Notes: generated from the letters alone by a model not told the origin. Counted from the stretch's first letter, positions 17,304 through 57,825 are shown. The stretch is DNA of 64,000 nucleotides from Thermodesulfovibrionales bacterium (GCA_044450345.1 JBIOIY010000006.1:1-64000), one strand, 5' to 3'. A program made the numbers and translations.

Positions 17304-18269
17304 TTATGCTTGGCCGGCATTTCTCAGCACAGATTCGAAATAGGCGATAGTCTTCTTAAGCCCTTCCTCCAGCTGGATCTTAGGCTCCCAGAGAAGCGTC
17401 TCTTTAGCAAGTCTTATATCGGGCTGCCGCTGCGTCGGGTCGTCTTGCGGCAAAGGGGCGTGGATGATCTTTGATCTTGACCCTGTTAGGGAAATGACCT
17501 TCTCGGCAAGCTCAAGGATCGAAAACTCGCCTGGATTCCCCATATTGACAGGTCCGATTACCTCATCGGGGGCGTTCATGAGCCTTATAAGACCGTCAAT
17601 AAGGTCATCCACATAACAAAAACTCCTGGTCTGACTCCCGTCGCCGTAAACGGTGATATCATCGTTGCGAAGCGCCTGGACGATAAAGTTGCTCACCACC
17701 CGGCCATCGTTGGGGTACATCCTCGGTCCGTAGGTGTTAAATATCCGTGCCACCCTAATCTGCAGCTTGTGCTGGCGGTAATAATCGAAGAAAAGGGTCT
17801 CCGCGCACCTCTTCCCTTCGTCATAACAGGACCTTGGGCCGATGGGGTTAACGTTCCCCCAATAGGATTCGGTCTGTGGATGCACGCTGGGGTCGCCGTA
17901 AACCTCGCTGGTGGAAGCCTGCAATATTTTGGCCTTTACCCTCTTTGCGAGACCGAGCATGTTGATAGCTCCGTGCACCGATGTCTTCGTTGTCTGGACG
18001 GGGTCGAACTGATAATGTATTGGAGAGGCAGGACATGCAAGGTTATATATTTCGTCGACCTCCACATATAGGGGGAAGCAGATATCGTGCCTCAACACCT
18101 CAAAAAAGGGGTTCCCGATAAGGTACGCGATGTTGCCCCTTCTCCCGGTGTAGAAATTATCCGCGCAGATCACTTCATTGCCCTCATTCAGGAGCCTCTC
18201 GCAAAGATGCGACCCGAGGAAACCCGCCCCGCCCGTCACAAGAATTCTTTTACCTAAATAGTTTTTCAA
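17304..18269 (-). CDS. UDP-glucuronate decarboxylase (UDP-xylose synthase family)
   Basis: [41 protein letters not shown]. Confidence 0.92.
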
Positions 18270-18445
18270 GATGTCTCGTCCTGTCTATTTCACCGGCGGA
18301 TTTCCTGCCGCCATCGCGCAAATAGTTCTTTCACCCGAGGTTATTATACCGCATGAACCCGACGAGCAACAACTTAGTGTTGAAGGTCGGGTACGACCTT
18401 CACGGGAACCACGGTACGCATAGGGCAAGATCAGGTTAGATATGT

Positions 18446-19474
18446 TCAATACCAGACAATTTCTCCTGACTTTTTCTTCACAGGGACTTTTCTCATGGCC
18501 ATCTGTTTTTCCCATGATCCCTTATTGTTCTTATACCACTCGACGGTCCTCAGCAGACCCTCGTCAAACGCAGTGTGCGCATTGAACCCCACTATCCTTT
18601 CGGCCTTTTCGGTAGAAGAGATATGGCTCTGGACCTGGCCGAATCTCTCATCGATATAAGTCATATGGCCTTGACCAAGACCGAATATTTCGATAATTTT
18701 TTTTGCGATATCCAGGACACTTATGCTGATCCCCGTTCCGAGATTAAGCACTTCTCCCTTAACGTCGCTGAGGGGCGCGTGCACGACCCTGTCAAGGGCA
18801 TCGGCAGTGTCTTCGACAAAGAGCCAGTCCCGTGCAGCAGAACCGTCGCCGTGAATCGTAAGCGGCTCTCCCAAAATCGCACTCGTGATAAAACGGGGGA
18901 CCGCCTTCTCCAGATGCTGACGGGGGCCATAATTATTGAACGGCCTTACGATAACTGCCGGAATGTCATAAGACTCCACATAAGAGGAGACCAGCCTGTC
19001 CGCTCCCGCCTTCGCCGCTGCGTAAGGCGTTGTGGGATTAATCGGATGGTCCTCATCCATGGGTTCCCGCAGTGCGGTGCCGTACACTTCGGAAGTCGAT
19101 ACATGGACGAACCTTTCGACCTTGTCCGAATGCCTTAATATTGCATTCGCAATCGCCTGAGTCCCCAGGACATCCGTAATAAAAAACACTCTATTCAAAT
19201 AAAGAGAGCGGGCTACGTGCGTCTCGGCCGCAAAATGGACGATGATCTCCGACCTTTCAACAAGGTCATCGACCAGATCAAGATTATTCAGATTACCATA
19301 CCAGAATTCGAACCTGTTCGAATCGCGGATCTCGGCAGGGACATTCTCGATATTTCCGGCGTAAGTCAGTGCGTCAAGAACAACAATCTTATATTCAGGA
19401 TACTTATAAAAAATGTGCTCTATAAAATTGCTGCCGATAAAGCCGGCCCCGCCGGTCACGAGAATGGTTCTCAT
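18446..19474 (-). CDS. NDP-glucose 4,6-dehydratase (RffG/RmlB-like)
   Basis: GGAGFIGSNF, DALTYAG, HFAAETHV, YAAAK, NNYGPRQHLEK. Confidence 0.88.
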   Translation of the reverse strand: MRTILVTGGAGFIGSNFIEHIFYKYPEYKIVVLDALTYAGNIENVPAEIRDSNRFEFWYGNLNNLDLVDDLVERSEIIVHFAAETHVARSLYLNRVFFITDVLGTQAIANAILRHSDKVERFVHVSTSEVYGTALREPMDEDHPINPTTPYAAAKAGADRLVSSYVESYDIPAVIVRPFNNYGPRQHLEKAVPRFITSAILGEPLTIHGDGSAARDWLFVEDTADALDRVVHAPLSDVKGEVLNLGTGISISVLDIAKKIIEIFGLGQGHMTYIDERFGQVQSHISSTEKAERIVGFNAHTAFDEGLLRTVEWYKNNKGSWEKQMAMRKVPVKKKSGEIVWY

Positions 19475-19482
19475 TGTACCTC

Positions 19483-20616
19483 CTAAGAATTATTTAGTTC
19501 TTCCCTCAAAACTTGTACGACGTATTTGAGATCACTTTCGCGCAAAGACGGATACAGCGGCAGTGACAAGGTGCTTCTCCCGATCTCCTCCGCCACAGGG
19601 AAGTCGCCATCCTTATATCCGAACGTCTTCCTGTAATAGGCGAGCAGATGAATCGGCCGGTAATTCACCGCAATCCCTATGCCGCGATTCTGGACCCTCC
19701 AGAGGAGCGGGTCTCTCATCGCCGGCGGGACCAGAACCGTGAAAAGGTGCCTTGCATGCCGTACCCCCGGGACCGTGCTTAATATTCTGACGTTTTCCAT
19801 TCCTTGCAATTGTTTCTCATACAACCTCCACAGGACATCTCTTTTCTCCCAGAGAGCTTCAATGCGTGCAAGCTGCCCTATCAGGAGCGCTGCCTGGATA
19901 TTGTCCATGTTGTATTTCCATCCTAACAGCGGCATGTCCCAGTGCTGATATTTCTTCGTATACCTGTCGGCGGCCCCCTTGTCTATCCCGTGGAGCCTCA
20001 ACATCCGCAGGTCCTCGGCGAGCTGTAGATTGTTCGTAGTCACCGCGCCGCCTTCGCCGGATGTTATATTTTTTGTGGCATAAAAACTGAAACACGCCGT
20101 GTCCGATAATTGCCCCACCTTGCTTCCATCCCTTGAGGCCTCGATGGCATGTGCGGCATCTTCGATGATTTTAAGATTGTGCTTGTACGCAAGCTCCCTG
20201 ATCCGTTTCATATCACACATCTGACCGTAAAGGTGCACCGGGATGATGGCCCTGGTCTTTTCGGTAATGGCCGATTCAACGAGCTCTGCGTTTAAGTTCC
20301 CTGTTTCCTCTTCAACATCCACAAACACAGGACGGGCCCCTGCATGCATGACCGCGTTTGACGTGGCGCAAAAGCTCATCGGCGTTGTGATGACCTCGTC
20401 CCCCGGGCCGATGCCGAGTGCAATAAGGCTCAGGTGGAGGGCAGCGGTACAACTGGTGAGCCCTATGGCATTGTCGGCGGAAAGGTACGCCGCGAAGGAC
20501 TTCTCAAACTCCTCGACCAATTTCCCGGTGGTCAAAAATATCGACTTAAGAATGCCCCTCGCCCGTTCTATATCTTCATCGTTAATAGAATGTTCAAAAA
20601 ACTCTATCTTTTTCAT
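19483..20616 (-). CDS. DegT/DnrJ/ArnB-family PLP sugar aminotransferase
   Basis: SCTAALHL, GPGDEVI, IEDAAHA, SFYATKNITSGEGG. Confidence 0.93.
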   Translation of the reverse strand: MKKIEFFEHSINDEDIERARGILKSIFLTTGKLVEEFEKSFAAYLSADNAIGLTSCTAALHLSLIALGIGPGDEVITTPMSFCATSNAVMHAGARPVFVDVEEETGNLNAELVESAITEKTRAIIPVHLYGQMCDMKRIRELAYKHNLKIIEDAAHAIEASRDGSKVGQLSDTACFSFYATKNITSGEGGAVTTNNLQLAEDLRMLRLHGIDKGAADRYTKKYQHWDMPLLGWKYNMDNIQAALLIGQLARIEALWEKRDVLWRLYEKQLQGMENVRILSTVPGVRHARHLFTVLVPPAMRDPLLWRVQNRGIGIAVNYRPIHLLAYYRKTFGYKDGDFPVAEEIGRSTLSLPLYPSLRESDLKYVVQVLREELNNS

Positions 20617-20651
20617 AGTATTATTTTTCTTTGACGCAGAATCGCCATATG

Positions 20652-22220
20652 CTATTGCGATATAGCGGACTTATAGATATGCACTCCTCCAATTTGTTTT
20701 ACGAATTCGAATCCAGGCAAAAATTCCTTCTTTTCCATGGGCGATAACGTCCTCGTCAACACGATTCGAAACTTTTTTAACACATTTTTTGTTATTTGAT
20801 AAATAAAAGGCCTCTTTTGAGCAAAAGTATTGGTAAGCGATAACCATCCTGGTTCTTTAGCCGTATAGTATAACAGTGGTGATTTATCTCCATATGGCCA
20901 GTACAATTCGAAAGGTGCAACGAGATTCAGCACCTCGGCTGAATCTCGGATTCCCAAACCATATAACTCGCCTGCAATGACGCCATTAAATGCCACGAGA
21001 CGATTGCTTTCTAAGGTTAGCACGGCTGAACGAACTTGGAACATTGAAACAACGGACAAACAGATGATCAAGACGCCGAGCACCAGTTTGTTATTACTGG
21101 CAAGTTTGACAATCGGAATTGCCACGATCATAAACGATATACATAATAGCAAGGGCATAACATAATAAGGCAGAGGCTGTCTCAATGAAATGGGAATGAG
21201 GAGTACAGCTTCAAATACCAACAGCGCAATAAGTTCCCTGCGAATAAGGGCATTCACCTTCTCTTGCTTCAGTGCCGTCCCAATTTCTTCAGTGAACCAC
21301 CAAACAGCTGCCGGGACTATAACAAAAATCGTAACATTATAGGCGTATGTATACCCCCATGCGTACAAGATTTCGCCAACGTGATTTGTGAGATATTCGA
21401 AAGTCGAGGGCATATTTCGAAGTTGGGTGCCGGTCATCAAAAAATCAGCTTCTCCAACCAGAAGCGTCAGATAATATTTTGAAGAATTCTGGAATGGAAT
21501 ATGGCCAGCCCGCAGTGCAAATATTATTTCAGGAAGTAGGCCAACTGTCAGACCTGCAGCGATGATCAACGCTTCCCGAATACGTTTGCCCCATGGTACA
21601 GGATGAGAAAACAATAACAGTAATATCGTCAGGGGGACTACACTTTGAATAAAAGTATAACGAGTACTGCAGGCAAGTCCTGCAAATAAAGCACTGAGAA
21701 TTAAAATACGTGATGAGCGATCGGGCTTGAATGCCAGTACCATCAAAGGCATTGCCATTGATAAAGCAACAATGTCAGGTAATGGTGTGGCTAACGTCAA
21801 CAAAAAGTGATAAGACGTCGCTGTAAGCAGCCATGCAACAGGACCTGCCCAAGGCAATTCTCCCCATCGAGATGCTCCTTTCCAAATAAAGACAAGGAAA
21901 GGTACGGCTGTTATAAGCGGCAGTAAACGACCTGCATCCATATATTGAAGACCCAATGAATGAAAAAAGTTCAAGAGAATGGGATATCCTGCCGGTATGA
22001 CACTGTTCGTAGAGCTTCCCAATCCGCCTTCCCGATCTTCAAGCGCCATCCATACATGGCCGAAAAAATCATTGACGACCAACTGATGATGTGCAGCAAA
22101 AAAATAGAACCCGTAAAGCGAAACGACTGATATCGAAGCAAGCCAGGGCAGGCCTTTCCAGCGAAGAATGGGCGGCACGGTCTCCAGAATATCTTTCTGT
22201 CGATTAAATTGCTTTTCCAT
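20652..22220 (-). CDS. Polytopic membrane protein, putative GT-C glycosyltransferase
   Basis: Many TM segments; N-terminal loop NDFFGH...PAGYPILL like ArnT/PMT-type GT-C; sits in a sugar cluster. Confidence 0.6.
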   Translation of the reverse strand: MEKQFNRQKDILETVPPILRWKGLPWLASISVVSLYGFYFFAAHHQLVVNDFFGHVWMALEDREGGLGSSTNSVIPAGYPILLNFFHSLGLQYMDAGRLLPLITAVPFLVFIWKGASRWGELPWAGPVAWLLTATSYHFLLTLATPLPDIVALSMAMPLMVLAFKPDRSSRILILSALFAGLACSTRYTFIQSVVPLTILLLLFSHPVPWGKRIREALIIAAGLTVGLLPEIIFALRAGHIPFQNSSKYYLTLLVGEADFLMTGTQLRNMPSTFEYLTNHVGEILYAWGYTYAYNVTIFVIVPAAVWWFTEEIGTALKQEKVNALIRRELIALLVFEAVLLIPISLRQPLPYYVMPLLLCISFMIVAIPIVKLASNNKLVLGVLIICLSVVSMFQVRSAVLTLESNRLVAFNGVIAGELYGLGIRDSAEVLNLVAPFELYWPYGDKSPLLYYTAKEPGWLSLTNTFAQKRPFIYQITKNVLKKFRIVLTRTLSPMEKKEFLPGFEFVKQIGGVHIYKSAISQ

Positions 22221-22229
22221 TTAAAGTCC

Positions 22230-22919
22230 TTACGGCTTTTTGCCGGTTATCAGTATATGAGGTGCGAAGTCTATGTGCCTGACCTGGGTAACGCAAGGCC
22301 GAAAGCCGCATTCCGAAAGAAGCGACACCCATCCGGACTGGGAACGATAATATCCGACCTTACCCTGAGTAATGTGCGTAACTCGCGTCATCGCATCGAA
22401 GACATAACAATACCAGAATTTCATGACCGGCGTGGATCCGACATCTTTAATCAGCACCATACCGCCATGATCGAGCAACTCGAAAGCATGCGATAGCATC
22501 TTTATTTGCAAGTCGTAGTCCATATGATGCAGGACGTCGACGAAAACTACAGCCGTCAGATCTCTTTCGCCATTCTCTTGTCCGAAAGGCTGAAGGCGAA
22601 GGTCTATACGACCATCTACTGCGAGCCTGCCGCACACCTGTTTTCCCAACGCGACACGGCGGGAATCGATCTCCATACCTATTAATTGTCGTTTGTCATT
22701 TTTCTGGCCGAGAGCGAGCCACTGCAGAAGCAAGCCGGCGCCGCAGCCCACATCTATCAACTTGCCCGTTGCGGGCAAAGACCTTTCGATATCGAGAAGG
22801 GGACAAAGTGCCATTCTGATTTTTGCGTAGGCTCCGCTCCACCTTCCGAAGTTCCGGTATGCATTCGCAATCAGGCTATAACGCGGGTCGATTACTGAGG
22901 GCCACCATGAACCGGTCAT
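22230..22919 (-). CDS. Class I SAM-dependent methyltransferase
   Basis: IDVGCGAG, DVLHH. Confidence 0.88.
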   Translation of the reverse strand: MTGSWWPSVIDPRYSLIANAYRNFGRWSGAYAKIRMALCPLLDIERSLPATGKLIDVGCGAGLLLQWLALGQKNDKRQLIGMEIDSRRVALGKQVCGRLAVDGRIDLRLQPFGQENGERDLTAVVFVDVLHHMDYDLQIKMLSHAFELLDHGGMVLIKDVGSTPVMKFWYCYVFDAMTRVTHITQGKVGYYRSQSGWVSLLSECGFRPCVTQVRHIDFAPHILITGKKP

Positions 22920-23734
22920 TCCATCTCACCGGTAATGGGGCATTGAGCGACAATAACGATATTCCAGCACAGATATCTGACCGGCGGTATGTATTTGCAT
23001 AGGAAACCGTCCATTTTAATCAAGGGTTCCATCCAACGGCGGGTGGTCTCGGGTTCCCTCAGAATTCTCTTCCAATAGCGATCATTATTGGGATGAATTC
23101 CATCGATAAAAAAATATTTCAAAAAAATGACTAACGATAAAAACCACATAGTGCTGCATTGTATGTCGCCGAAATATTTTTCCATTTGTTTAAGAATATC
23201 AAATCCGACAGGACGCTCATCTTTTGTGCGGACATTATCGGCCATACTCCGGTATATATTAATCACAGGATTATATCGCAGAGGCTCGGTAAAAAAGGCC
23301 TTACCGCCGGGCTTCAAAACCATTGCGACTTTCCTTATTAAATCCCGGGGTCGTTCAAGGTGATGAAGGACATTTGCTATGTAAACCACATCATATTTTT
23401 CACTTCCGGTCTCCAGGTCTTCTGCCGAACTTGTTATGCCCCTGATATCCAACCCTTCACCCTTGGCTGCAGTAACAGAGTGTTTCACCATTTCCTCCGA
23501 AAGATCGACTGCAGTTACACATGCCCCCCTGCGAGCAAAAAAAAGACTTGCCTCTCCCAACCCGCATCCTATATCCAAAATTTTGAGTCCGGCAAGGGGC
23601 GGAAGATGTTGAATGATCCATCTGTTTTCAAGGGCTAGAAAGTGATCAAAGTCACTGGACACATCAGATATTTTCTCCTGTGCCCATTTGTTGTGGTGTA
23701 TACGTTCGCGTTCAATTCGTCCCATAAGTTTCAA
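22916..23734 (-). CDS. Class I SAM-dependent methyltransferase
   Basis: LDIGCGLG, VDLS, NVLHHL, LKPGG. Confidence 0.9.
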   Translation of the reverse strand: MKLMGRIERERIHHNKWAQEKISDVSSDFDHFLALENRWIIQHLPPLAGLKILDIGCGLGEASLFFARRGACVTAVDLSEEMVKHSVTAAKGEGLDIRGITSSAEDLETGSEKYDVVYIANVLHHLERPRDLIRKVAMVLKPGGKAFFTEPLRYNPVINIYRSMADNVRTKDERPVGFDILKQMEKYFGDIQCSTMWFLSLVIFLKYFFIDGIHPNNDRYWKRILREPETTRRWMEPLIKMDGFLCKYIPPVRYLCWNIVIVAQCPITGEME

Positions 23735-24747
23735 AGGAGGCGGGCATCCTCAGTAGTCTCCCGAAGTACAAAATGAGGACGCTGTTTGGTATCGTCATAG
23801 ATCCGGGCGACGTATTCACCGATCACTCCGAGCATGATCATGATCAAAGATCCAAAGGTAACAATAGCCAGCAAAAGCGAAGCCCAGCCGGGAACCATAC
23901 TGACGTTGTACCATTCCCATGCGATAAAGCTCCCCAATAAGAAAAGTAAAAAAGGGAAACTTCCGAGTAGGGCAAACATATAAGCCAACTTTAAGGGCCG
24001 GCTCGACATGGATACGATTCCATCCAAAGAAAACTTTATCATCTTTGACAGAGAAAATTTCGTTTCACCAGCCACCCTCTGTTGACGTTCGTACTCGATG
24101 ATCTTTGTGGGAAGTCCAATCCAGCCTACCAAGCCGCGGAGGTACCGAGAACGTTCCGGCATGTCTTTTAGAATCTTGTTTGCGCGACTGCTGAGGAGAC
24201 GAAAATCTCCCACATCCATCGGCAACTTTACCGGAGAAAGAAAACTTAACAGGCGATAAAAAGCGTGTGCGGTGATGCGTTTAAAAGAACTCTCACCTTG
24301 GCGGACTTTTCGTTTCGCCAATACGATATCCGCTCCGCCCCTCCATTCAAGGAGCATCCGCTCCATTATTTCGGGGGGATCCTGCAGATCTGCATCCATA
24401 GTTAAGATTGCATCGCCCTTCGCATACTCATGCCCGCACGTCAGCGCGATTTGATGACCAAAATTACGTGCAAATGAAAATCCCCGGATATAAGTATGTC
24501 TGCCGGCCGCAGCCTTTATCATGTTCCATGTCTCGTCGGTACTGCCATCATCTATGAGCAATACCTCCACATCATACGAACTCGCCATTTTTAAATGCAT
24601 ACTGCCAATCCGGGTCAGAAGTTCCGGAAAAACCTTTTCTTCGTTCAGAAGAGGAATGATGATAGACACTAATGGCTTAACGGAATCAGTGTTCAGCCGC
24701 GTTTTCTGCATAGTTTTAGATAAGTCTTCCATCATTGGACGTAGCAT
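23731..24747 (-). CDS. GT2 polyprenol-phosphate glycosyltransferase (ArnC/GtrB-like)
   Basis: IIPLLNEE, DDGSTD, RNFGHQ, MDADLQDPPE, two C-terminal TM helices; start uncertain. Confidence 0.92.
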   Translation of the reverse strand: MLRPMMEDLSKTMQKTRLNTDSVKPLVSIIIPLLNEEKVFPELLTRIGSMHLKMASSYDVEVLLIDDGSTDETWNMIKAAAGRHTYIRGFSFARNFGHQIALTCGHEYAKGDAILTMDADLQDPPEIMERMLLEWRGGADIVLAKRKVRQGESSFKRITAHAFYRLLSFLSPVKLPMDVGDFRLLSSRANKILKDMPERSRYLRGLVGWIGLPTKIIEYERQQRVAGETKFSLSKMIKFSLDGIVSMSSRPLKLAYMFALLGSFPFLLFLLGSFIAWEWYNVSMVPGWASLLLAIVTFGSLIMIMLGVIGEYVARIYDDTKQRPHFVLRETTEDARLL

Positions 24748-24792
24748 TTTCAGAAATCTTCTTTTCGATCACATCCGCCATCAAATACTACT

Positions 24793-25488
24793 TTATTTTT
24801 TCAAAATCAGTCCCATCGTAGTGTCCATATATTTTACTCTAAATCCCAGTCCCGCGTAAAAATTCATCGCTCTCGTGTTCGTCGCCTGCGTTCGGACGGT
24901 AACATTAGTCAGGCCCTCGTTACTAAACCAGTCGAATGCCTTACTCGTAAGATTATGCCCGATGCCCTTCCCCTGCTTCTGTGAAACCACTCCTATAAGG
25001 GATATATCTCCATCATTATCAGAAAGTTTTTTGCAAGTTATAAAGCCGCTGCCGTCCACGAGAAAGGTCTTTTGAAGCTTGTCCCTCAGAGCATTATCGA
25101 CCCATCTGTGGTAAGCCTTTTCCGCATCTTCACCCGTAAAAAACGGGTCGTGGTAAAAGCGGCTGTCAAGAAAAAGCCCGCTTGCCATGGATTTAAGGGC
25201 TGCTGCGTCCCTCTTATCCGCAACTCTTACAGGATCCCCTTCCCTCAGCGCTATCCCGTCGGTTTTCCGTTCCCATACAATGCCTATGTCGGTCGTATAA
25301 AAACGAAAGGCCTCCAGCCGTTGTATGTCTGCAATCCTCCCTTCAATGATCCTGCATGTGAGATATGAGTACCCTTCTTCATATGCCTGATTTATCAGTC
25401 TTTTCAACCGCATTTCAGATGGGACTTTGGTCAGTTTACCGATCTTCTTTTTGAAAAGCTTACTGTCCCATACAAGCTCAACTATCAA
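24793..25488 (-). CDS. GNAT acetyltransferase, WecD/RffC-like (NDP-4-amino sugar N-acetyltransferase)
   Basis: LVWDSKLF, SRFYHDP, QGKGIG, VRTQATNTRAMNFY. Confidence 0.85.
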   Translation of the reverse strand: MIVELVWDSKLFKKKIGKLTKVPSEMRLKRLINQAYEEGYSYLTCRIIEGRIADIQRLEAFRFYTTDIGIVWERKTDGIALREGDPVRVADKRDAAALKSMASGLFLDSRFYHDPFFTGEDAEKAYHRWVDNALRDKLQKTFLVDGSGFITCKKLSDNDGDISLIGVVSQKQGKGIGHNLTSKAFDWFSNEGLTNVTVRTQATNTRAMNFYAGLGFRVKYMDTTMGLILKK

Positions 25489-26411
25489 AGCAACTGATCC
25501 TTCAAAATATAGATAGGTCTTGCCTGGACCTCCTGATAGACCCTTCCCAGATATTCTCCCATGATGCCGAGTATCAATAGCTGAACGCCGCCGACAAAGA
25601 GAACAGCTACAATAATAGAAGCATACCCGAGCACTGGTATGCCGAGAAATATCTTTTTATACAAAAAATAGAAAGCATAACAAAGGCCGATCCCTGCACT
25701 GAGAAGACCCAGATACGTTGCAAGCCTGAGCGGCACCACTGAAAAAGAGGTGACGGCATTGAACGCAAGCCTGAAGAGCTTCACCGTATTATATTTACTG
25801 ACACCGCGTTCACGCGGGGCATGCTCGACTTCAAGAAGTGCGGTACGGAACCCTGTCCATGAAATCATTCCGTGAATAAACCTTGCACGCTCCCTCATAT
25901 TCCTTAGCACGTCCAGTATCTTCTTGTCGAACATCCTCAGGAGGGTCTGATCCCTGGGAATATGGATACCTGACAATTTGTTCAGGAACCACCAGAATAA
26001 AAAGGAATTAAGACGCTTCGGCAAAGAATCTTTTTTCACTTTCCTGATACCATAAACAAGGTCATAGCCTTCTCGTAACTTTTCCCATAATTTTGGTATC
26101 TCTTCAGGCTGGTCCTGGAGATCACCGTCCATAAGGATTATTGTCTGCCCGTTTGTATGGTCGAGCCCGGCAGTGATTGCGATATGATGTCCGAAGTTCC
26201 TCGAAAAGCTGACGCCTTTGACCCGCCTGTCCTTTCCATGGAGGTCTTTTATAATCGGCCAACTATTATCCCTGCTGCCGTCGTCTACAAGAATGATTTC
26301 ATAAGTCCCGAGTTTCTCCATGACAGAGGAAAGTCTTGCGTAAAGGTGCGCAAGATTTTCCTCTTCATTGCAGACAGGTATTATTACGGAAAAATCAGGG
26401 ACGGCTGTCAT
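25485..26411 (-). CDS. GT2 polyprenol-phosphate glycosyltransferase (ArnC/GtrB-like)
   Basis: DDGSRD, RNFGHH, MDGDLQDQPEE, GEYLGRVY, two TM helices. Confidence 0.92.
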   Translation of the reverse strand: MTAVPDFSVIIPVCNEEENLAHLYARLSSVMEKLGTYEIILVDDGSRDNSWPIIKDLHGKDRRVKGVSFSRNFGHHIAITAGLDHTNGQTIILMDGDLQDQPEEIPKLWEKLREGYDLVYGIRKVKKDSLPKRLNSFLFWWFLNKLSGIHIPRDQTLLRMFDKKILDVLRNMRERARFIHGMISWTGFRTALLEVEHAPRERGVSKYNTVKLFRLAFNAVTSFSVVPLRLATYLGLLSAGIGLCYAFYFLYKKIFLGIPVLGYASIIVAVLFVGGVQLLILGIMGEYLGRVYQEVQARPIYILKDQLL

Positions 26412-27004
26412 CAGAAGTTTCTATTATTGTTGCAGTCTATGGCAAAGGTCTCACCCTTGTTCCTCCCGGCCGTATTCCCCTGGGCAAAGGCGACATAGCA
26501 GGGAGGGTCAGTAGCAGCATTAACTGTCACATTGGGTGGCGTAGTAATAGGAAGAGTTAGCTTCTCACCATTGACTATCCAGTAACTGAAGGTCGTCCCG
26601 GTTCCCGGCCTAAAGCCGGTAAGCGCATTATTTATATCAATGTTATTTGCCGCGACTGCATTTACACTACAGCTTCCTCTCTGTATGAGGCCGCGACCGT
26701 TGGCATCTGCTGTATCATACGCATTTGTCAAATGATCTTTCCCCGCTGTCCCGAGAATCACAGTCACCCCTGCGGCAGGGGAGCTGTATGGGGGAACGGT
26801 AGCTGGATCACATGGCGAATATCTTCCCCTGTCCGCGAAAAACTGCTGTTCAAGCAGCGCCAGATTTTGTAGATTCGTGTACGCTTCAGTCCTCGCGGCA
26901 TTTTTTTGCTGTCCGATATAAGCGGGTATTCCAATTGCGGTCAGGATGCCGATGATCGCTATAGTGATGAGAAGTTCGATTAATGTAAAACCGTTTTTAT
27001 TCAT
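26411..27004 (-). CDS. Type IV minor pilin (PilE-like)
   Basis: Class III signal MNKNG/FTLIE; LEQQFFADRGRY resembles PilE. Confidence 0.88.
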   Translation of the reverse strand: MNKNGFTLIELLITIAIIGILTAIGIPAYIGQQKNAARTEAYTNLQNLALLEQQFFADRGRYSPCDPATVPPYSSPAAGVTVILGTAGKDHLTNAYDTADANGRGLIQRGSCSVNAVAANNIDINNALTGFRPGTGTTFSYWIVNGEKLTLPITTPPNVTVNAATDPPCYVAFAQGNTAGRNKGETFAIDCNNNRNF

Positions 27005-28803
27005 TTCTTCACCTCAGTTTTTTCTTTCATGAGTTTGTCTAATTTCGCCTGGATTCGAGAATTAGCCGGCAACCGTTTGAGGCTGTACTCATATGCCTTG
27101 ATAGCATCTTCCCGCTTTCCCATCTTTTCAAAGATATCTCCCAGACTCTCCAGGTAATACGGATTTTGCCTGTTAAGCTGAGCGGGCAAAGTAGTCCTCA
27201 GGATCATCATGTTGTATACCTGATCCTCGGTCAGTCTGAATTTTTCTATTATCTGACTATTTTCAGGTGAGTTCTTCACGAAAACTACGGCCATCACCTG
27301 GGCAGAGACCGGGACCCAGCTATCGTCATCGAGAAGCATAAAGAAAAGAGGCAATATATTGCCATATACATCCACCGGGCTGAATACGATGAGGTTTATA
27401 TTATAATTTTTGAGCAGCCTCTTCCACAATGGGGTCTTGCCGGCAGGAAGAGATTCGCTCTTGATTGATTCGACAGCCTTCATCATCCAAGTATATTCCT
27501 TCATCACCGTAAGGTTCAAGGCCCTGGTATCAACAAAGGTCTTGACCTCCGGATAGAGCCGCCAGTCAAGGTATCCTCCCGATGCCATATCGTTAAGCAT
27601 ATTGCCTTTGATATGGTTTTTCTGTATGAAATCTGCCGCTGCCTTCGGAACAGTCCATGTAGATTCTTTCGTCTTAAACACATCAAGATTTGTCTTCGCA
27701 CTCAGGAAAAGGAGCGAGGATGCCAGCATGACTATGGAAAATACGGCATTAAGGTGGGACTGTTTGATTAAGATTCTGTCCTCGTGTTCTTTCAGCCAGA
27801 GGCTCAGCTCGTTTCCCAGGACCAGTGACGCAATGAGGCCGTAATAAACCGTATACCTGCCGGCCGATACGCTGCCCGCAGCAAGGCAGAGAAGAAGTAT
27901 AAGATGCGTACGGTCAAACTTCTTGTTCCGCAGGATGAGGACAACAGGGAACAAAAATAATGCAGTGAGATACCCGTAGTCAGGGGGAGCGACTTGCATC
28001 TTGAACGCATAAAACGGAGACGCGTACTCCTGTATACCGCTATAAAAAGGAGCAAATTCATCAGAAAAGGCGATCTGGAACCCGAAAAAACCGTTCGGAT
28101 TTATCCCGGATGCACCTAACGCAATGAATATAACTGATAAGAAGATTACTTTTTCCCTCGTCGAAAAACCGCTCCTCTTAAACAGCATTTTTATTGCCTC
28201 TGCCACTGCAAAAACGAGAATTATTGCGGCCCCCATGATAAAGCCGCCGTGCAGGTTCGCCCATATCAACAGAAGAACAGGGAGAAAATAAAAGACCTTG
28301 CTTCTCTTTCGAATATAATCGTCGACCATAACGAAACATACAACGCTAAGGCTGATAGTATAGAGGACAGGCCGGTCCCCAAAAAACCTCAACAGGTTGC
28401 AGGAGGCAAGGAAAAGTGCAAGAAAATTGATATAGGGGTATACGCCTCTGCTTCTTAACGCCCTGAACATTACATACAGCGATCCGAGCAGCAATATCGT
28501 CCTCAAGGCCCCGATACCCATAGGCCCGAATTTATTATAAAGCAGATAGGAGATGATCTGCGCCAGCCAATACTGCGACAGGATAAAGCGCTCCCTGTCG
28601 GGGTAAAGGTTGCTGTTTTCGGGCAGGGTGGATGTAAAAGAAAAGGGGTCCGAATCAGGGATGTGTCCGTTCTCAACAATATATCTCCCGGTCGCTATAT
28701 GCCACCAGAAGTCATAATCCCATACGGTCTGCGACAGAAATATAAGTCCGACGGAAAAAAACAGGCAGATTAACGCAAGGTAAAAAAAACCACCAGGGAA
28801 CAT
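27001..28803 (-). CDS. Polytopic membrane protein with C-terminal TPR, putative GT-C protein glycosyltransferase
   Basis: DYDFWWHIATG...IPDSDPFSFT, WANLHGGF, many TM segments, terminal TPR (LGDIFEKMGKREDAIKAYEYSLKRLP); start placed at MFPGG. Confidence 0.65.
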   Translation of the reverse strand: MFPGGFFYLALICLFFSVGLIFLSQTVWDYDFWWHIATGRYIVENGHIPDSDPFSFTSTLPENSNLYPDRERFILSQYWLAQIISYLLYNKFGPMGIGALRTILLLGSLYVMFRALRSRGVYPYINFLALFLASCNLLRFFGDRPVLYTISLSVVCFVMVDDYIRKRSKVFYFLPVLLLIWANLHGGFIMGAAIILVFAVAEAIKMLFKRSGFSTREKVIFLSVIFIALGASGINPNGFFGFQIAFSDEFAPFYSGIQEYASPFYAFKMQVAPPDYGYLTALFLFPVVLILRNKKFDRTHLILLLCLAAGSVSAGRYTVYYGLIASLVLGNELSLWLKEHEDRILIKQSHLNAVFSIVMLASSLLFLSAKTNLDVFKTKESTWTVPKAAADFIQKNHIKGNMLNDMASGGYLDWRLYPEVKTFVDTRALNLTVMKEYTWMMKAVESIKSESLPAGKTPLWKRLLKNYNINLIVFSPVDVYGNILPLFFMLLDDDSWVPVSAQVMAVVFVKNSPENSQIIEKFRLTEDQVYNMMILRTTLPAQLNRQNPYYLESLGDIFEKMGKREDAIKAYEYSLKRLPANSRIQAKLDKLMKEKTEVKK

Positions 28804-28837
28804 GTCCCTGGTGGAGAGATCGGCTAATCGTTTCAAA

Positions 28838-29416
28838 TTAATCCGAGTAGATCGACTTCTTATGAAGGACACCGCCAGCCTTGTCCGCAGCGTATAGGTC
28901 TATCCTGGTGCTGTCATGTGCACAATTTATGCGGGACATATAGTTGGCGACTGTATCGGCGATCATAGTGGCGTCGACGTTTGCCCCAACAACCGCGAAG
29001 CCAGCATTACGCCAGAGGCTTATTGTCGGGTCCCAGGGGGACAACTCCCTGCTCAGATTCCATTTGGCAGAGATATATGCGGAGCAGAGGTTTCCAGCAA
29101 TTAACATGGCCCCTAACGAACCATTATTAACGTCGGTGCCGTCGGAGAGAATCTTGCCATCGCCGTTGGAATCAACCTCGACTACATTTTCCTGCGTTTT
29201 GGCCAAGCCCTTTTTTGCCGAGTTAAGCCATGCCTGGAGCTCAGGCTCCGACGCGCCGGTAGCCCTTATGACCGCACCCTTCCTCGACCTTTCCTGCATG
29301 CCGATATACCCCGGTATTGCAATAGCTGCAAGAATACCGATAATCGCTACGACTATCAAAAGTTCAATAAGGGTAAAACCTTTTTGCTCCTTCAAATTAT
29401 TCACTGCCTTATACAT
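28838..29416 (-). CDS. pilA: Type IV major pilin PilA-like
   Basis: QKG/FTLIELLIVVAIIGILAAIAIP; AAGGAGG SD; upstream sigma-54 promoter. Confidence 0.85.
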   Translation of the reverse strand: MYKAVNNLKEQKGFTLIELLIVVAIIGILAAIAIPGYIGMQERSRKGAVIRATGASEPELQAWLNSAKKGLAKTQENVVEVDSNGDGKILSDGTDVNNGSLGAMLIAGNLCSAYISAKWNLSRELSPWDPTISLWRNAGFAVVGANVDATMIADTVANYMSRINCAHDSTRIDLYAADKAGGVLHKKSIYSD

Positions 29417-29526
29417 AATCAAACCTCCTTTGGAATATTACGACCAATGGTCGCAGAATTCACCATAAAAATAAAGCCTTAATCATCACCTCCTTAAATA
29501 ATTTAAAGAATCATTGCGAATATTTA

Positions 29527-29543
29527 AGCAGTTAGCATGCCAA
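29527..29543 (-). promoter_or_regulatory. Sigma-54 (-24/-12) promoter of the pilin gene
   Basis: Minus strand TTGGCATGCTAACTGCT, exact GG-N10-GC spacing. Confidence 0.8.
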
Positions 29544-29625
29544 TCTGCATTTTTTTGTTGAAATCTTAACAGGTTAGTATAAACACATATAAATTATTCA
29601 AAAGGATATCAAAAGTCAAGAGGAA

Positions 29626-29640
29626 TGACATTTTTTGTCA
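29626..29640. promoter_or_regulatory. Candidate enhancer (UAS) for a sigma-54 activator
   Basis: Palindrome TGACA-N5-TGTCA about 85-100 bp upstream of the -24 box. Confidence 0.5.
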
Positions 29641-29884
29641 CTTAAAGACCAAGAAAAACAATTCATGGCAGTCAAAGGCAATCTGGGATCAATACAGACC
29701 GGCCATCCAGTTTGCCATATAATACCTTCACCATCATCAAGCGACAATAACGATGTTCCCAGGACCGAATTTCGCCAAATAATCATCATGGATACTTTTC
29801 TCGATCGATTCAATAATGCTATAGTCAATCATGGGAAATCAATTTTATGAAATTATGTGCCAAGGCATATAATTTCTATGGCAG

Positions 29885-30646
29885 TTGATGAATACAAACT
29901 TTTGTCAAGATCAATTCGAAAATGCATATCCAGACGGCATAGAGCACCACTGGTGGCAGTTGGCGCGAAACAGCGTTATCGCACATGCGGTAAAGACGCT
30001 TGCTGTGCCTGATTCCGTTGTTCTGGATATAGGATGCGGGCGAGGGATTACAGTCAAATACCTGAGAGATAAAGGCATAAACTGTTCGGGCGTAGAGATA
30101 GCAAGAACCTCCCCTGTTCCCGGTGCCGGGGAGTTTATTCGGGTCGGGGCCGATGTCATGGACCTCTCTCCCGCCGACCGACAGCGGTATGACACGCTTC
30201 TCTTGCTTGATGTCATTGAACATGTCCCTGATCCTATCTCTTTTCTCCAGAACCTGGCCGATGCATTTCCAAATATAGCCCATGTGATCTTTACTGTTCC
30301 TGCCCGCCAGGAGTTGTGGTCGAATTATGATGAATTTTACTGCCATTTCAGGAGATACTCGCTGAAGATGGTCGAAGATCTCGCCGGCCGGCTCGGCTGG
30401 AAGATCAGATGGCGAGGATACTTCTTCCGGTTGGTGTACCCCGCTGCGTATGTGCTCGCCAAGCTTGGGATAAAAAGGGAGACGAAGCTTACAGGACCAG
30501 GCGGTATAAGGAAGCTGGGACATAAGCTGATTTCATATATTATGATCCTTGACCGTCACATACTTCCGAGCCAATTGAGAGGCACAAGTATTCTCGCATG
30601 CTTCTGCCCTCATAAGAACGTAACCGAGACATCACCTTCCATCTGA
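29885..30646 (+). CDS. Class I SAM-dependent methyltransferase
   Basis: EHHWW, LDIGCGRG, LDVIEHV, TVPA...HFRRY; type often found in glycan clusters. Confidence 0.88.
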   Translation: MMNTNFCQDQFENAYPDGIEHHWWQLARNSVIAHAVKTLAVPDSVVLDIGCGRGITVKYLRDKGINCSGVEIARTSPVPGAGEFIRVGADVMDLSPADRQRYDTLLLLDVIEHVPDPISFLQNLADAFPNIAHVIFTVPARQELWSNYDEFYCHFRRYSLKMVEDLAGRLGWKIRWRGYFFRLVYPAAYVLAKLGIKRETKLTGPGGIRKLGHKLISYIMILDRHILPSQLRGTSILACFCPHKNVTETSPSI

Positions 30647-51423: not shown

Positions 51424-52587
51424 TTATTCGTGGTATCCGCCTTCTTCCCTGACAGAGATAGCAACCTTATAGAGTACGGTCAGGACCAGGAACCCGATCG
51501 CCCAGACACCGAGCGTAATCATCGCCTCAGGCGCGGTCGGCCAATACTCCGTGATGCCCTCGAACATGTTGGGCACAAACCCGCCGATGACCAACCCAAA
51601 CCCTTTATCTATCCAGAGAGAGATGAAAAGTGATGCGCAGGCAACTGCAAGCAGGTTTTCGTTCTTGCGGAAACCGGGGAAAACCAGAAGAAACAGCGCG
51701 ACCACCGCAAGGATACTGGAAGTCCACATGATCGGCACGAGTTTATCATGCCCTTCAATCCCGGCATAGAGGTACCTGAAGGGACTAATGTGACCGGGGA
51801 TATTGCTATAGAAAGCAGTAAAGAACTCGAGCCCAAGGAGAAACACGTTGGCGAACATGGCATACGTTACGATCTTTCCGAGCGCCTGGATCGGCTCCTG
51901 TCCCGGATCGAATTTCGTCAGCTTTCTGACGAGAAGGGCCAGGATGATCAGCAGCGCCGGGCCTCCGGCAAAAGCGGATGCGAGAAACCGGGCTGCCATC
52001 ACGGCCGTCAGCCAGAAATGCCTGCCGGGGATACCCGCATACAGGAAGGCCGTAACCGTATGGATACTGACCGCCCACGGTACCGAAAGATAGATAAGGG
52101 GCTTTACCCATTGGGGCGGATGCACTCCTTTGCTGTCTGCGGCCAGCGTAGTCCAACCGATCACGATATTCAGCACGAGGTAGCCCATTAACACAACGCT
52201 ATCCCAGAACATAACCGAGTTTGGTGTGGGATGAAGAATAACGTTTGTTATCCTCATCGGCTGTCCCATGTCGACAAAGATAAAGAGGATGCACATGATC
52301 ACGGCCGAGACTGCGAGGAATTCACCCAATATAACTATCTTCCCGAATTTCTTGAAATCATGGAGATAGTACGGAATGACGAGCATCACCGCAGAGGCGG
52401 CAACCCCGACCAGAAAGGTGAACTGGCCGATATAGAGTCCCCAAGACACGTCGCGGCTCAGTCCGGTGATACCCAGACCATAGCTGAACTGTCTGAGGTA
52501 CTGGGTCATGGCTATGCCGATGACTACCAGCAACACGCCTATCCACAGCCAATATCGTTTACTTCCAATAAGAGCTTTCTCGAGCAT
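51424..52587 (-). CDS. dsrP: DsrP (NrfD/PsrC-family membrane subunit)
   Basis: SWGLYI, VDMGQP, SIHTVTAFL, WIDKG; position after dsrO. Confidence 0.95.
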   Translation of the reverse strand: MLEKALIGSKRYWLWIGVLLVVIGIAMTQYLRQFSYGLGITGLSRDVSWGLYIGQFTFLVGVAASAVMLVIPYYLHDFKKFGKIVILGEFLAVSAVIMCILFIFVDMGQPMRITNVILHPTPNSVMFWDSVVLMGYLVLNIVIGWTTLAADSKGVHPPQWVKPLIYLSVPWAVSIHTVTAFLYAGIPGRHFWLTAVMAARFLASAFAGGPALLIILALLVRKLTKFDPGQEPIQALGKIVTYAMFANVFLLGLEFFTAFYSNIPGHISPFRYLYAGIEGHDKLVPIMWTSSILAVVALFLLVFPGFRKNENLLAVACASLFISLWIDKGFGLVIGGFVPNMFEGITEYWPTAPEAMITLGVWAIGFLVLTVLYKVAISVREEGGYHE

Positions 52588-53381
52588 TATTCCTTACCTC
52601 CTATCACGTAGTAAATACTGGGCTGTGTTCCTAGTTCGGGTTTACGCCTGATCGTATACTTCGACTCTATGATCTTTCTCACCTCGGAATTCGGGTCTCC
52701 GAGATCTCCGAATACGATAGCCCCGTTCGATGCCTCAACACATGCCGGCATCTGCCCGATTGCCAGCCGTTCGTAACACATGGTACATTTCTCGACAACA
52801 CCGATCGTGCGAGTAGGGAACTGCTTGTTTTCCTTCTTGATGAAGGGCCGGGGATCACGGTAGTTGAAGCTCCTCGCCCCAAACGGACAGGCCGCCATAC
52901 AGAACCTGCAGCCGATGCACCGGTGCATATCCATCATCACTATTCCGTCTTTGCGCTTAAAAGTGGCCTTGGTGGGACACACCCTGACACACGGCGGCTG
53001 TTCGCAATGGTTGCATAAAAGAAGGAAATTCTTCTCCTTCATCTCCTTGTTCATATACTCGTCTTCCGTGGATGTGGGGAACGTACGCTCGTAGTTGTCC
53101 TTCCAGATCCACTTCACCTCGTCTTTGGGATTGCCGATGTCGGGCACGTTGTGGATGCTGTGGCAGGCGTCGACGCACTTCTGATAATCTTCAGGCGTCC
53201 TCAACTTGCTCACGTCGATGACAAAACCCCATCGTTTGGCCGTAAGGGACCTGGGATCAGGATGCGTCTGTGTCGCCTCCAATATCTTTCCTCCCATGCC
53301 GTTAAGGACAGCGGGGCCGCCGATCCCGAGCACGGTCGAAACTCCGGCTAGTTTTAAAAATTGTCTTCTATTTATGCTCAT
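52587..53381 (-). CDS. dsrO: DsrO periplasmic iron-sulfur subunit
   Basis: Tat signal NRRQFLK, CNHCEQPPCVRVCP, CIGCRFCMAACP, EKCTMC. Confidence 0.95.
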   Translation of the reverse strand: MSINRRQFLKLAGVSTVLGIGGPAVLNGMGGKILEATQTHPDPRSLTAKRWGFVIDVSKLRTPEDYQKCVDACHSIHNVPDIGNPKDEVKWIWKDNYERTFPTSTEDEYMNKEMKEKNFLLLCNHCEQPPCVRVCPTKATFKRKDGIVMMDMHRCIGCRFCMAACPFGARSFNYRDPRPFIKKENKQFPTRTIGVVEKCTMCYERLAIGQMPACVEASNGAIVFGDLGDPNSEVRKIIESKYTIRRKPELGTQPSIYYVIGGKE

Positions 53382-53788
53382 GACTCTTTCTCCTTCGGTG
53401 CGATGTGGCAACTGAAGCAGTATGGGTTCACCCCGATATAATTGTGGCATTTATCGCAGAACTCTTTTTTATTCGAATGGCAGTTCAAGCATGTGTTCTG
53501 AAGACTCATGGTGAAACTCTTGCCTCCGGAATTCACATAGATACGATCGCCGTTCCGGACGACCGAGTCACGCCACTGGTTGATCATCTGCATATGTTCC
53601 GCCCTCATAAACGCCTTGGGTTCAACACATTCCTTCTTGCCATGCTCTTTTTCCCATTGGAGTATCGCCGGCGTGTCGAACTTCAGCTCGGGCTTTGCAT
53701 TGGCCTTGCCGAGGTTATAATAAAAGGGGAACGCGAAGATTGCCACGAAGGCAATCACCACCCCGATGACTATTTTTCCTGAGTTCAT
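53378..53788 (-). CDS. dsrJ: DsrJ triheme cytochrome c
   Basis: Three CxxCH motifs plus CVE...MRAEHM. Confidence 0.95.
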   Translation of the reverse strand: MNSGKIVIGVVIAFVAIFAFPFYYNLGKANAKPELKFDTPAILQWEKEHGKKECVEPKAFMRAEHMQMINQWRDSVVRNGDRIYVNSGGKSFTMSLQNTCLNCHSNKKEFCDKCHNYIGVNPYCFSCHIAPKEKES

Positions 53789-53789
53789 C

Positions 53790-55409: not shown

Positions 55410-55411
55410 TT

Positions 55412-56404: not shown

Positions 56405-56442
56405 TGAGTTACCTCTTTTTCTTTTGCGTTATCATCATTGCT

Positions 56443-56970: not shown

Positions 56971-57097
56971 ACGATGTGAACGCCGCTCCTGAGGATTTCG
57001 AAACTATCGTATCCCTTGTAAGAGCACTTTCCCGGTGTCTTGTCAAATGTCGAGTGTCGTACCTTCTCTTTCATCGTTATCAATTGAGACAGAACGT

Positions 57098-57173: not shown

Positions 57174-57196
57174 GTCAAATACTGCTTACACAAGAA

Positions 57197-57754: not shown

Positions 57755-57825
57755 TCTTTAAAATCCATTGGTTTTTCAATTACTCACCGCTCCGAAACTG
57801 ATCCGTTTGCCAACAAGACAGATGG

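Follow-up and report, generated by a model that had tools for sequence, protein, structure and literature searches.

Why would an uncultured bacterium of the sulfur cycle encode sugar-making and sugar-transferring enzymes directly behind a gene for type IV pilin? Such an arrangement lies at positions 17,304 to 30,646 of the stretch of DNA that we analyzed (JBIOIY010000006.1:1-64000, from the Thermodesulfovibrionales bacterium GCA_044450345.1). This whole stretch of 64,000 nucleotides, which we call the window, corresponds to the beginning of contig 6 in a genome of 3.19 Mb (86 contigs, 91% complete), and the named homologues of its proteins are from Nitrospirota/Thermodesulfovibrionales. We think it probable that these genes form an island for the O-glycosylation of pilin, in which a sugar is linked to a lipid phosphate and is then transferred by a glycosyltransferase of the GT-C fold. 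This would resemble the TfpW system of Pseudomonas, but it would use a different GT-C family that is not annotated. The genes and signals, from pilA's divergent neighbor onwards, are as follows (aa, amino acids; nt, nucleotides; ORF, open reading frame; TPR, tetratricopeptide repeat; GT2, glycosyltransferase family 2; SAM, S-adenosylmethionine; NDP, nucleoside diphosphate):

29885..30646, plus strand: divergent class I SAM methyltransferase, 253 aa (Methyltransf_23, 60.5 bits)
29527..29542, minus strand: sigma-54-type promoter-like element, TGGCAY-N6-TGCW, about 110 nt upstream of pilA (pattern match)
28838..29416, minus strand: pilA, type IV pilin, a 192-aa prepilin with a 13-aa leader that ends in G, then FTLIELL (N_methyl 38.7 bits, TIGR02532 39.1 bits)
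28780..28814, minus strand: terminator-like hairpin, a 10-bp stem with 7 G-C pairs and then T8, 24 nt past the pilA stop
27001..28872, minus strand: 623-aa ORF, predicted pilin-linked GT-C glycosyltransferase with a C-terminal TPR tail (structure model, Foldseek and VIA-align)
26411..27004, minus strand: second type IV pilin (pilin2), 197 aa with a 5-aa leader (N_methyl 33.7 bits, TIGR02532 35.0 bits)
25485..26411, minus strand: GT2a, a GtrB/ArnC-type polyprenyl-phosphate glycosyltransferase (Glycos_transf_2; PgfS 243 bits and ArnC 207 bits, both below cut-offs)
24793..25488, minus strand: WecD-like GNAT N-acetyltransferase for a 4-amino sugar (PRK10975 101 bits over residues 2-219 of 231, cut-off 219)
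23731..24747, minus strand: GT2b, a second GT2 of the polyprenyl-phosphate type (PgfS 260 bits and ArnC 134 bits, full length)
22916..23734, minus strand: class I SAM methyltransferase, 272 aa (Methyltransf_25 and Methyltransf_11, about 77 bits)
22230..22919, minus strand: class I SAM methyltransferase, 229 aa (Methyltransf_23, 40 bits)
20652..22220, minus strand: predicted second GT-C glycosyltransferase, 522 aa, PMT_2-like (PMT_2 28.8 bits, above the cut-off of 26.1)
19483..20616, minus strand: DegT-family nucleotide-sugar aminotransferase (DegT_DnrJ_EryC1, 414 bits)
18446..19474, minus strand: NDP-glucose 4,6-dehydratase, RmlB-like (TIGR01181 304 bits, cut-off 365)
17304..18269, minus strand: UXS, UDP-glucuronate decarboxylase (UDP-xylose synthase), of doubtful membership (human UXS1, 4e-125)

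All of the genes that the initial annotation had listed are present (13 in total), with those from pilA to UXS on the minus strand and the third methyltransferase divergent. A co-directional row runs from pilA (28838-29416) to the RmlB-like gene (18446-19474), and the overlapping stop and start codons that had been described are there: four junctions overlap by 4 nt (623-aa ORF/pilin2, GT2a/GNAT, GT2b/methyltransferase, and methyltransferase/methyltransferase) and the pilin2/GT2a junction overlaps by 1 nt. The remaining junctions of the row have gaps of 8-45 nt, and UXS is set apart from it by 176 nt. The G+C content is 0.44-0.47 across the island (20000-30000), versus 0.50-0.53 (about 0.51) in both flanks, where there is a BcrAD_BadFG/DUF2229 CoA-activase gene on one side and uvrA on the other.

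The protein that carries our argument is the 623-aa one. Pfam gives sub-threshold matches to TPR_2 and TPR_21 only, NCBIfam gives no match, and neither database has a model for its membrane domain. The structure prediction (from an alignment of 32 sequences) has a pLDDT of 88.7 and a pTM of 0.86. When we compared this model to known structures with Foldseek, GT-C enzymes accounted for all 29 matches listed of the 30 with E <= 1e-3. With VIA-align, the top 26 rows were all GT-Cs that glycosylate proteins: STT3 had a Z score of 18.1 (444 residues, 4.2 A), followed by Pmt4 (15.8), DPY19 (15.5), AglB (15.4), and PglB (14.6). Emb and ArnT were next in rank (both 13.8), and these Z scores differ only modestly. 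For residues 548-620, the alignment is to TPR proteins (Z of 12). On the basis of the model, the 623-aa protein is predicted to have the GT-C fold. Five residues (D52, D54, W56, W57, and H58) just past the first hydrophobic helix (28-46) are invariant across the 32 sequences, which are 40-86% identical; if we have placed the membrane sides correctly, D52-x-D54 would be an acidic motif in the first extracytoplasmic loop. Because the first 22 residues of the ORF are unstructured in the model and unmatched in homologues, translation probably begins at codon 13 (28836) or at the ATG of codon 24 (28803). If the longest start is used, the ORF and the end of pilA overlap; a start at codon 13 or 24 would lie 1 to 34 nt past the pilA stop. 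The nearest named homologue is from Candidatus Sulfobium mesophilum (65% identity).

Is the neighborhood of this gene and pilA more than an accident? In the genomes of relatives, a same-strand pilin ORF lies directly upstream of the GT-C gene in 10 of the 11 best non-self loci; in the eleventh (genome G005), there is a pilin 1.5 kb downstream. (G000 is the genome of the window itself and other G numbers are related genomes.) We also drew on species representatives from many phyla, which gave 78 loci. In all 12 that have E <= 1e-83, a pilin lies 48-140 bp upstream on the same strand. The other 66 loci, which are remoter paralogues from the wider family, serve as an internal control: within 1 kb, there is no same-strand pilin in any of them (0/66), and ORFs with the motif lie on the opposite strand in two. 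The sets of 11 and 12 loci share genomes, and kin are not independent. Nevertheless, the pairing holds down to 33-40% identity, and because it recurs in relatives, the arrangement is not due to chance. Co-occurrence with pilin genes and a GT-C fold for both membrane proteins had been proposed as checks on the initial annotation. Both came out in its favor (for the fold, by model and Foldseek for both proteins, with VIA-align for the 623-aa protein and PMT_2 for the 522-aa protein). Among the 78 loci, no pilin-linked gammaproteobacterial gene was found with the 623-aa family's own motifs.

Other GT-C families occupy the same site. We inspected the pilA loci of 20 further relatives, 19 of which were assessable. 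In 15 of the 19, pilA (or pilA plus a second pilin) is followed by an ORF of 598-705 aa on the same strand, and ten of these ORFs match the Pfam family of TMEM260-like protein O-mannosyltransferases (PF11028, formerly DUF2723; 1.6e-19 to 2.7e-29). Four are rich in TPRs and have no significant match to a GT-C model (the one from G042 has a sub-threshold match to PMT_2), and the remaining one, from G025, was outside the Pfam scan. In a phylum-wide sample of TMEM260-like genes, 11 of 30 loci have a same-strand pilin upstream; within the same order, the count is 10 of 12. The 623-aa protein has no match to PF11028, and when its family was compared to the pilA-adjacent proteins of other genomes (mixed alignment A4), there was no profile-level similarity (hhalign probability of 15.7%). 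That dissimilar GT-C families replace each other behind pilA suggests a role that is dedicated to pilin.

A few sites deviate. G018 (L125) has a 203-aa remnant of a 623-type gene behind pilA and then a gene for a sigma-54 activator; G028 and G035 have convergent paralogues; and G009 (L126) has an "empty" site (pilA, pilA, pilin2, uvrA) without a GT-C or glycosylation genes. We also observed that in G002, G003, and G005, there is a pilA/TMEM260-like pair as well as a second pilin with a 623-type GT-C by uvrA, 18-24 kb away. The gene after a pilA-adjacent TMEM260-like ORF encodes a Polysacc_synt/MatE transporter in all three cases that we checked (L108-L124, e.g., L108:2054-4015 and L111:4783-6789).

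Which enzymes would provide the sugar? The initial annotation proposed that the two GT2s load polyprenol phosphate, and both are indeed of the polyprenyl-phosphate type. GT2a matches GtrB sll0501 (PDB 5ekp) at 2.6e-83 over residues 3-305 of 308; it also matches ArnC over its full length (about 5e-54) and an archaeal Dol-P-Man synthase. GT2a and GT2b have C-terminal hydrophobic segments (two in GT2b). The best NCBIfam match of both is PgfS, far under that model's equivalog cut-off of 500 bits, and their scores against the ArnC model are likewise well short of its cut-off of 529. GT2a is 79-87% identical in five other genomes. These genomes span genera (window 25485-26411; L013-L017, L022), and in comparison the adjacent GT-C is 39-69% identical and the uvrA and CoA-activase flanks are 64-84% identical. 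This suggests either strong constraint on GT2a or lateral exchange of a module of GT2a and GNAT. The GNAT gene adjoins or is near GT2a in all five other loci that have GT2a.

The dehydratase, aminotransferase, and GNAT suggest that the sugar might be a 4-acetamido-4,6-dideoxyhexose. The best families for these proteins are those of the dTDP-Fuc4NAc pathway (RmlB, WecE, and WecD), with scores versus cut-offs of 304/365 for TIGR01181, 250/375 for PRK11706, and 101/219 for PRK10975. The best ten PDB matches of the dehydratase are all dTDP-glucose 4,6-dehydratases, and it is 94% identical in G004 and 81% identical in G010, adjoining uvrA in both. For the aminotransferase, PseC (362 bits) and ArnB (291 bits, cut-off 631) are also below their cut-offs, and the nearest proteins in PDB are perosamine synthetase, ArnB, and QdtB. 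The GNAT matches TDP-fucosamine acetyltransferase (PDB 2fs5) at 1.7e-10.

None of the three methyltransferases belongs to a specific family in Pfam or NCBIfam. Because similar methyltransferases occur in other genomes' cassettes, their presence fits with methylation of sugars. In G004, the 272-aa protein is 83% identical (in the same position), the 229-aa protein is 93% identical, and the divergent one is 90% identical and likewise divergent from pilA. Relatives of the divergent methyltransferase (27-31% identity) lie within the cassettes of five other genomes.

The locus had been described as self-contained and as including UXS. The first description is wrong and the second is doubtful. UXS is absent from the operon in the nearest relative (G004), where the dehydratase abuts uvrA, and it is on a different contig in 6/6 relatives that have both UXS and a pilin-linked GT-C, so it is probably a neighbor and we do not count it in the system. 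Furthermore, the locus does not encode a nucleotidyltransferase, a UDP-glucose dehydrogenase, or a flippase; an RmlA-like gene (which scores below its cut-off) and a UDP-glucose dehydrogenase are encoded on other contigs. As previously noted, families for Wzx, Wzy, Wzy_C (the PglL/TfpO type), or an initiating phosphoglycosyltransferase are not found among the 13 locus proteins, and the same scans (Pfam and NCBIfam profiles, E <= 0.01, by which we assigned families to these proteins) give no ArnA, ArnD, ArnE/F, formyltransferase, or deformylase and none of the DprE1/DprE2-type families of the D-arabinofuranose donor pathway. There is also no small membrane ORF within the locus.

The island is well delimited. 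Its CoA-activase and uvrA flanks recur in relatives. Between them, across 13 genomes (G000 and 12 relatives), we found at least six cassette architectures, all of which begin with pilin and GT-C. In this sample, the type of cassette follows the genus (SDR, short-chain dehydrogenase/reductase):

G000 and G004: GT2a, GNAT, GT2b, two methyltransferases, 522-aa GT-C, aminotransferase, dehydratase
G006, G024, and G031: GT2a, GNAT, GFO-type oxidoreductase, hexapeptide acetyltransferase, two aminotransferases, SDR
G010: GT2a, aminotransferase, GNAT, another PMT_2 protein, dehydratase
G012, G014, G026, and G047: sets with nucleotidyltransferase, SDRs, methyltransferase, GT2
G022: a set without a GT2
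G020: a paralogous GT-C with extra pilins
G003 and G005: further layouts

The loci of G024 and G031 have one GT2 and one GT-C, with a GT2a-type enzyme accompanying a 623-type GT-C, and G000, G004, and G006 each have two GT2s and two GT-Cs. Given these counts, we assign GT2a to the 623-aa enzyme and GT2b to its 522-aa counterpart. That the cassette varies while its flanks stay fixed, along with the low G+C content of the island, would fit with diversifying pressure on the surface of the pilus. Since pilin glycans are reported to block pilus phages in P. aeruginosa (10.1101/150227), phages are one candidate for this pressure.

Two other observations concern the cassettes. In G006, a B12-binding radical SAM enzyme is encoded between a GT2 and a PMT_2-type GT-C (L014:3103-4617); it may be a sugar C-methylase. 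And some cassettes have small ComP-like pilins at their far end, each of which is followed by a protein of about 610 aa (L016:12621-14465, L018:889-2790, L021:13804-15633, L024:5392-7212). These proteins have a TPR-rich C-terminal third, and their N-terminal 430 aa have no Pfam match, even at E <= 1. When the 623-aa family profile was compared to the TPR-rich 609-aa protein of G014, only the TPR part aligned. It may be that the proteins of about 610 aa represent a third type of membrane protein linked to pilin.

We also make a broader proposal, which we hold tentatively and which has a somewhat better chance of being wrong than right. As a rule, the major pilin gene in Thermodesulfovibrionales would be followed by a pilin-dedicated GT-C. 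At least two dissimilar families would be swapped at this one site, and they would be fed by a swappable cassette for rare sugars between fixed flanks, so that this would be a "pilin serotype locus" like the O-antigen loci. GtrB-type synthases would load N-acetylated amino-dideoxy sugars and methylated sugars onto polyprenyl phosphate, for which we know of no precedent.

Turning to the presumed acceptors, both pilins have a class III signal peptide (G-1, F+1, E+5) and a hydrophobic N-terminal helix. pilA looks like the major pilin gene: it is the top match to TIGR02532 among the 15 prepilin-motif matches in the genome, and it has homologues in 49 of 61 relatives. Its ORF spans 28838-29422, and the likely start is the ATG at 29416, which is preceded by a strong ribosome-binding site (AAGGAGG). 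The second pilin, which may be the minor pilin that the initial annotation took it for, has a conserved C-terminus that is rich in cysteine and asparagine, and its homologues come after the GT-C in several related loci. It also has an 18-residue insertion, rich in Pro, Ser, and Ala, that is not in the 8 other homologues that we aligned. Low-complexity stretches of this kind are frequent targets of O-glycosylation. There is no pilus machinery within the 64-kb window; PilB-like ATPases are encoded on contigs 5 and 10, beside other pilin-like genes.

How might the enzymes be expressed along with an abundant pilin? The promoter-like element upstream of pilA is the single match in the window to TGGCAY-N6-TGCW, which we take to be the -24/-12 consensus of sigma-54, yet 22 of 100 shuffled sequences also contain at least one match, so as a pilA promoter it is only suggestive. 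The terminator-like hairpin past pilA sits within the 5' end of the annotated 623-aa ORF. A strong hairpin with a T-run lies 18-27 nt past the pilA stop in 7 of 12 loci that we compared, and the sequences of the stems differ. The in-frame ATG at codon 24 falls in the loop of the hairpin, so termination might be coupled to the start of translation of the GT-C. (The corresponding position reads TTG in the two nearest relatives.) The glycosylation genes are likely expressed at a low level by read-through, and not necessarily one-to-one with pilin.

If we put these pieces together, the pathway might work as follows. In the cytoplasm, the RmlB-like enzyme would dehydrate an NDP-glucose whose nucleotidyltransferase is encoded elsewhere. 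The DegT enzyme would aminate the product at C4, and the WecD-like GNAT would N-acetylate the amino sugar to give a 4-acetamido-4,6-dideoxyhexose. GT2a would place a single residue of this sugar on polyprenyl phosphate, and a flippase would turn the lipid-linked sugar to the periplasmic face of the membrane. There, before the pilus is assembled, the 623-aa GT-C would move the sugar to a Ser or Thr of pilin (perhaps of both pilins). The second module (GT2b, two methyltransferases, and the 522-aa GT-C) would add a second and probably methylated sugar, most likely to the first sugar or else to another site. With a sigma-54-like promoter of its own and the hairpin behind it, pilA would be expressed far above the enzymes, which would come from read-through.

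The closest known system is that of TfpW from P. aeruginosa group IV, for which a GT-C is described whose gene immediately follows pilA and which has an acidic motif in loop 1 and a periplasmic TPR domain at its C-terminus (10.1101/2020.04.19.049825). Our system shares the GT-C gene immediately downstream of pilA, the acidic motif in what would be periplasmic loop 1, and the C-terminal TPR domain. It also shares the clustering with genes for lipid-linked sugars, which the same report describes for TfpW in some species, and the donor, which would be a single sugar on polyprenyl phosphate. Before the C-terminal domain, both proteins have a loosely similar Tyr/Pro-Phe/Pro motif: it is Y277-x8-PF-x8-P296 in the 623-aa protein and Y-x6-PF-x7-P, with different spacing, in periplasmic loop 4 of TfpW. 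The acidic motif differs as well (DxD instead of DDx). The initial annotation considered the likeness to the TfpW route to be loose. The likeness stands (GT-C, acidic loop-1 motif, TPR tail, position just after pilA), but it is closer than that, albeit as a likeness of described features. In other respects the systems differ: the island's sugar route uses RmlB, DegT, and GNAT without DprE1/DprE2; its lipid-sugar synthases are GT2s of the GtrB/ArnC type; it contains an additional GT-C, an additional pilin, and three methyltransferases; and it belongs to another phylum, the Nitrospirota.

Several points weigh against pilin glycosylation. It is the most likely function, but we infer it from the genes, along with the identity of the sugar, each GT2/GT-C pairing, and the pilin as the acceptor; what is methylated and whether phages are evaded are also at this level. 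Because every match of the sugar enzymes is below the curated equivalog cut-off, the identity of the sugar is a guess. Also, UDP or GDP sugars are the known donors of GtrB-type enzymes, which are not known to use dTDP sugars. The GtrA family (PF04138) was not found in this genome, which is 91% complete. The 522-aa protein, which in its predicted structure is closest to GT-Cs that modify lipids or glycans (ALG12, AftB, and ArnT), could have another acceptor. G010, with one GT2 and two GT-Cs, breaks the one-to-one pairing. Given the terminator-like hairpin past pilA, the downstream genes are not necessarily co-expressed with it. Finally, we had considered the invariant Ser126 of PilA (in an E-x-SPW motif) as evidence for an acceptor site, and we dropped it because the motif occurs in most PilA homologues regardless of which gene follows; this serine does not track the GT-C, as it is present in G009, whose locus has no GT-C.

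We considered four other explanations. The one that we take most seriously, while still thinking it unlikely, is that the functions are split: the 623-aa GT-C would act on pilin, and the second module or even the whole cassette would decorate lipid A, the core of lipopolysaccharide, or a polysaccharide, in the style of ArnC/ArnT or GtrB/GtrC, and would merely share the island. The 522-aa protein is predicted to be a GT-C (pLDDT of 76.5; D51 is invariant and E61 is nearly so across 24 sequences). All five Foldseek matches of this model at E <= 1e-3 are GT-Cs, and the top ones act on lipids or glycans (ALG12, AftB, ArnT, and AftD), as a split would lead one to expect. The matches of both GT2s to ArnC models (207 bits for GT2a, 134 bits for GT2b), the hairpin that parts pilA from the downstream genes, and the sporadic occurrence of the second module (in 2 of 61 relatives) are on this side as well. 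On the other hand, those two (G000 and G004) both have the 522-aa GT-C and its module in the pilin island. Also, the module is inside the packed co-directional row, with its 4-nt overlaps, between pilin2 and the genes for the amino sugar, and the locus lacks ArnA, ArnD, and ArnE/F.

It is also unlikely, and we rank it next, that the GT-C is a general protein O-glycosylation enzyme that modifies many periplasmic or surface proteins, with pilin as one of its substrates, as PglL does in Neisseria and GtrB with PgtC2 does in streptococci. The streptococcal GtrB and GT-C are described as glycosylating many membrane-associated proteins (10.1101/2024.05.05.592596). Furthermore, the 623-aa protein belongs to a very large wider family, whose profile matches 25,796 cluster representatives at E <= 1e-3, 16,292 at 1e-10, and 3,670 at 1e-30. 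Family members are found in 48 of 61 relatives, often with several per genome, and as explained above the wider family is mostly not linked to pilin (0/66 loci). But the orthologous subgroup is adjacent to pilin (12/12 and 10/11 loci), G000 has just one member of the family, and different GT-C families swap at the same place behind pilA.

It is very unlikely that the 623-aa enzyme moves a glycan en bloc from a polyprenyl diphosphate (e.g., an O-antigen unit made elsewhere) to pilin, like TfpO or PglL, while the local GT2s serve something else. The best fold matches do include the oligosaccharyltransferases STT3, AglB, and PglB, and some relatives' islands contain GT4 enzymes, short GT2s, and Wzx/MATE-like transporters. 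However, the Z scores of Pmt4 and DPY19, whose donors are monophosphates, are no more than 3 units below that of STT3; minimal loci retain GT2a together with the GT-C; and the G000 locus has no initiating phosphoglycosyltransferase, Wzx, or Leloir enzymes that would build a glycan. As for a non-catalytic role in pilin accessory function or assembly, non-enzymatic accessory proteins are reported to be encoded near pilA in Pseudomonas (PMC11841053), but given a confident full GT-C fold in the model and an acidic loop-1 motif and other polar residues that are invariant across 40-86% identity, we give this idea hardly any credence.

The proposed glycosylation of pilin by a single lipid-linked sugar has parallels beyond TfpW. 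The three-component systems of periplasmic glycosylation (GtrA/GtrB/GtrC; ArnC/ArnT; and GT136, as described in PMC11127046) also combine a polyprenyl-phosphate sugar synthase with an extracytoplasmic GT-C. They differ in that the island's presumed acceptor is pilin instead of O antigen or lipid A and that the island lacks a GtrA, MATE, or ArnE/F flippase. Relative to the ArnC/ArnT pathway for lipid A, the island lacks equivalog-level ArnC and ArnB as well as ArnA and ArnD. In streptococci, GtrB is reported to make a lipid-linked monosaccharide that the GT-C PgtC2 puts on Ser/Thr of exported proteins; the substrates are Ser/Thr-rich disordered regions of many proteins and the sugars are glucose or GalNAc (10.1101/2024.05.05.592596), in contrast to the island. 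Nor are the genes of these streptococcal systems linked to that of a substrate. The Pgf system (PgfS, PgfM1, PgfE, and PgfM2) shares PgfS, as the best but below-cut-off match of both GT2s. TfpO/PilO and PglL modify pilin too, and tfpO is described as lying directly downstream of pilA (10.1101/2020.04.19.049825). Unlike these Wzy_C enzymes, the island's membrane proteins have no Wzy_C match at E <= 0.01 and are predicted to have the GT-C fold, and the locus gives no sign of a pathway for diphosphate-linked oligosaccharides. The replacement of one GT-C by another that we see behind pilA mirrors the P. aeruginosa pilin groups, which are described as having either tfpO or tfpW after pilA (10.1101/2020.04.19.049825). 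As for the TMEM260-like GT-Cs, they take the same site behind pilA in sister genomes, but the 623-aa protein has neither PF11028 nor profile similarity to them; human TMEM260 is described as a protein-specific O-mannosyltransferase (PMC10214176).

So far, pilin glycosylation by a pilA-adjacent GT-C has been worked out for one Pseudomonas lineage, that of TfpW. Our literature searches turned up nothing relevant, by title, on pilin glycosylation in Nitrospirae or Thermodesulfovibrio or on a link between DUF2723 and pilin, and the initial annotation also knew of no description in this lineage. If our proposal is correct, then the same logic operates in a phylum that is distant and largely uncultured, through a different GT-C family for which neither Pfam nor NCBIfam has a model. 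It would also give a first plausible substrate to a large orphan family (about 16,000 cluster representatives at E <= 1e-10). TMEM260 is a human disease gene, and pilin would be a natural, genetically linked substrate for its bacterial relatives. The swaps of sugar cassettes that occur in nature might be of use for glycoengineering.

The remainder of the window contains housekeeping genes and a dsrAB and dsrMKJOP-like set. The latter spans 51424-63089, with dsrMKJOP-like genes (NrfD, 4Fe-4S, CCG, and nitrate-reductase-gamma-like) and two NIR_SIR genes that are similar to dsrAB, and these genes indicate dissimilatory sulfur metabolism.

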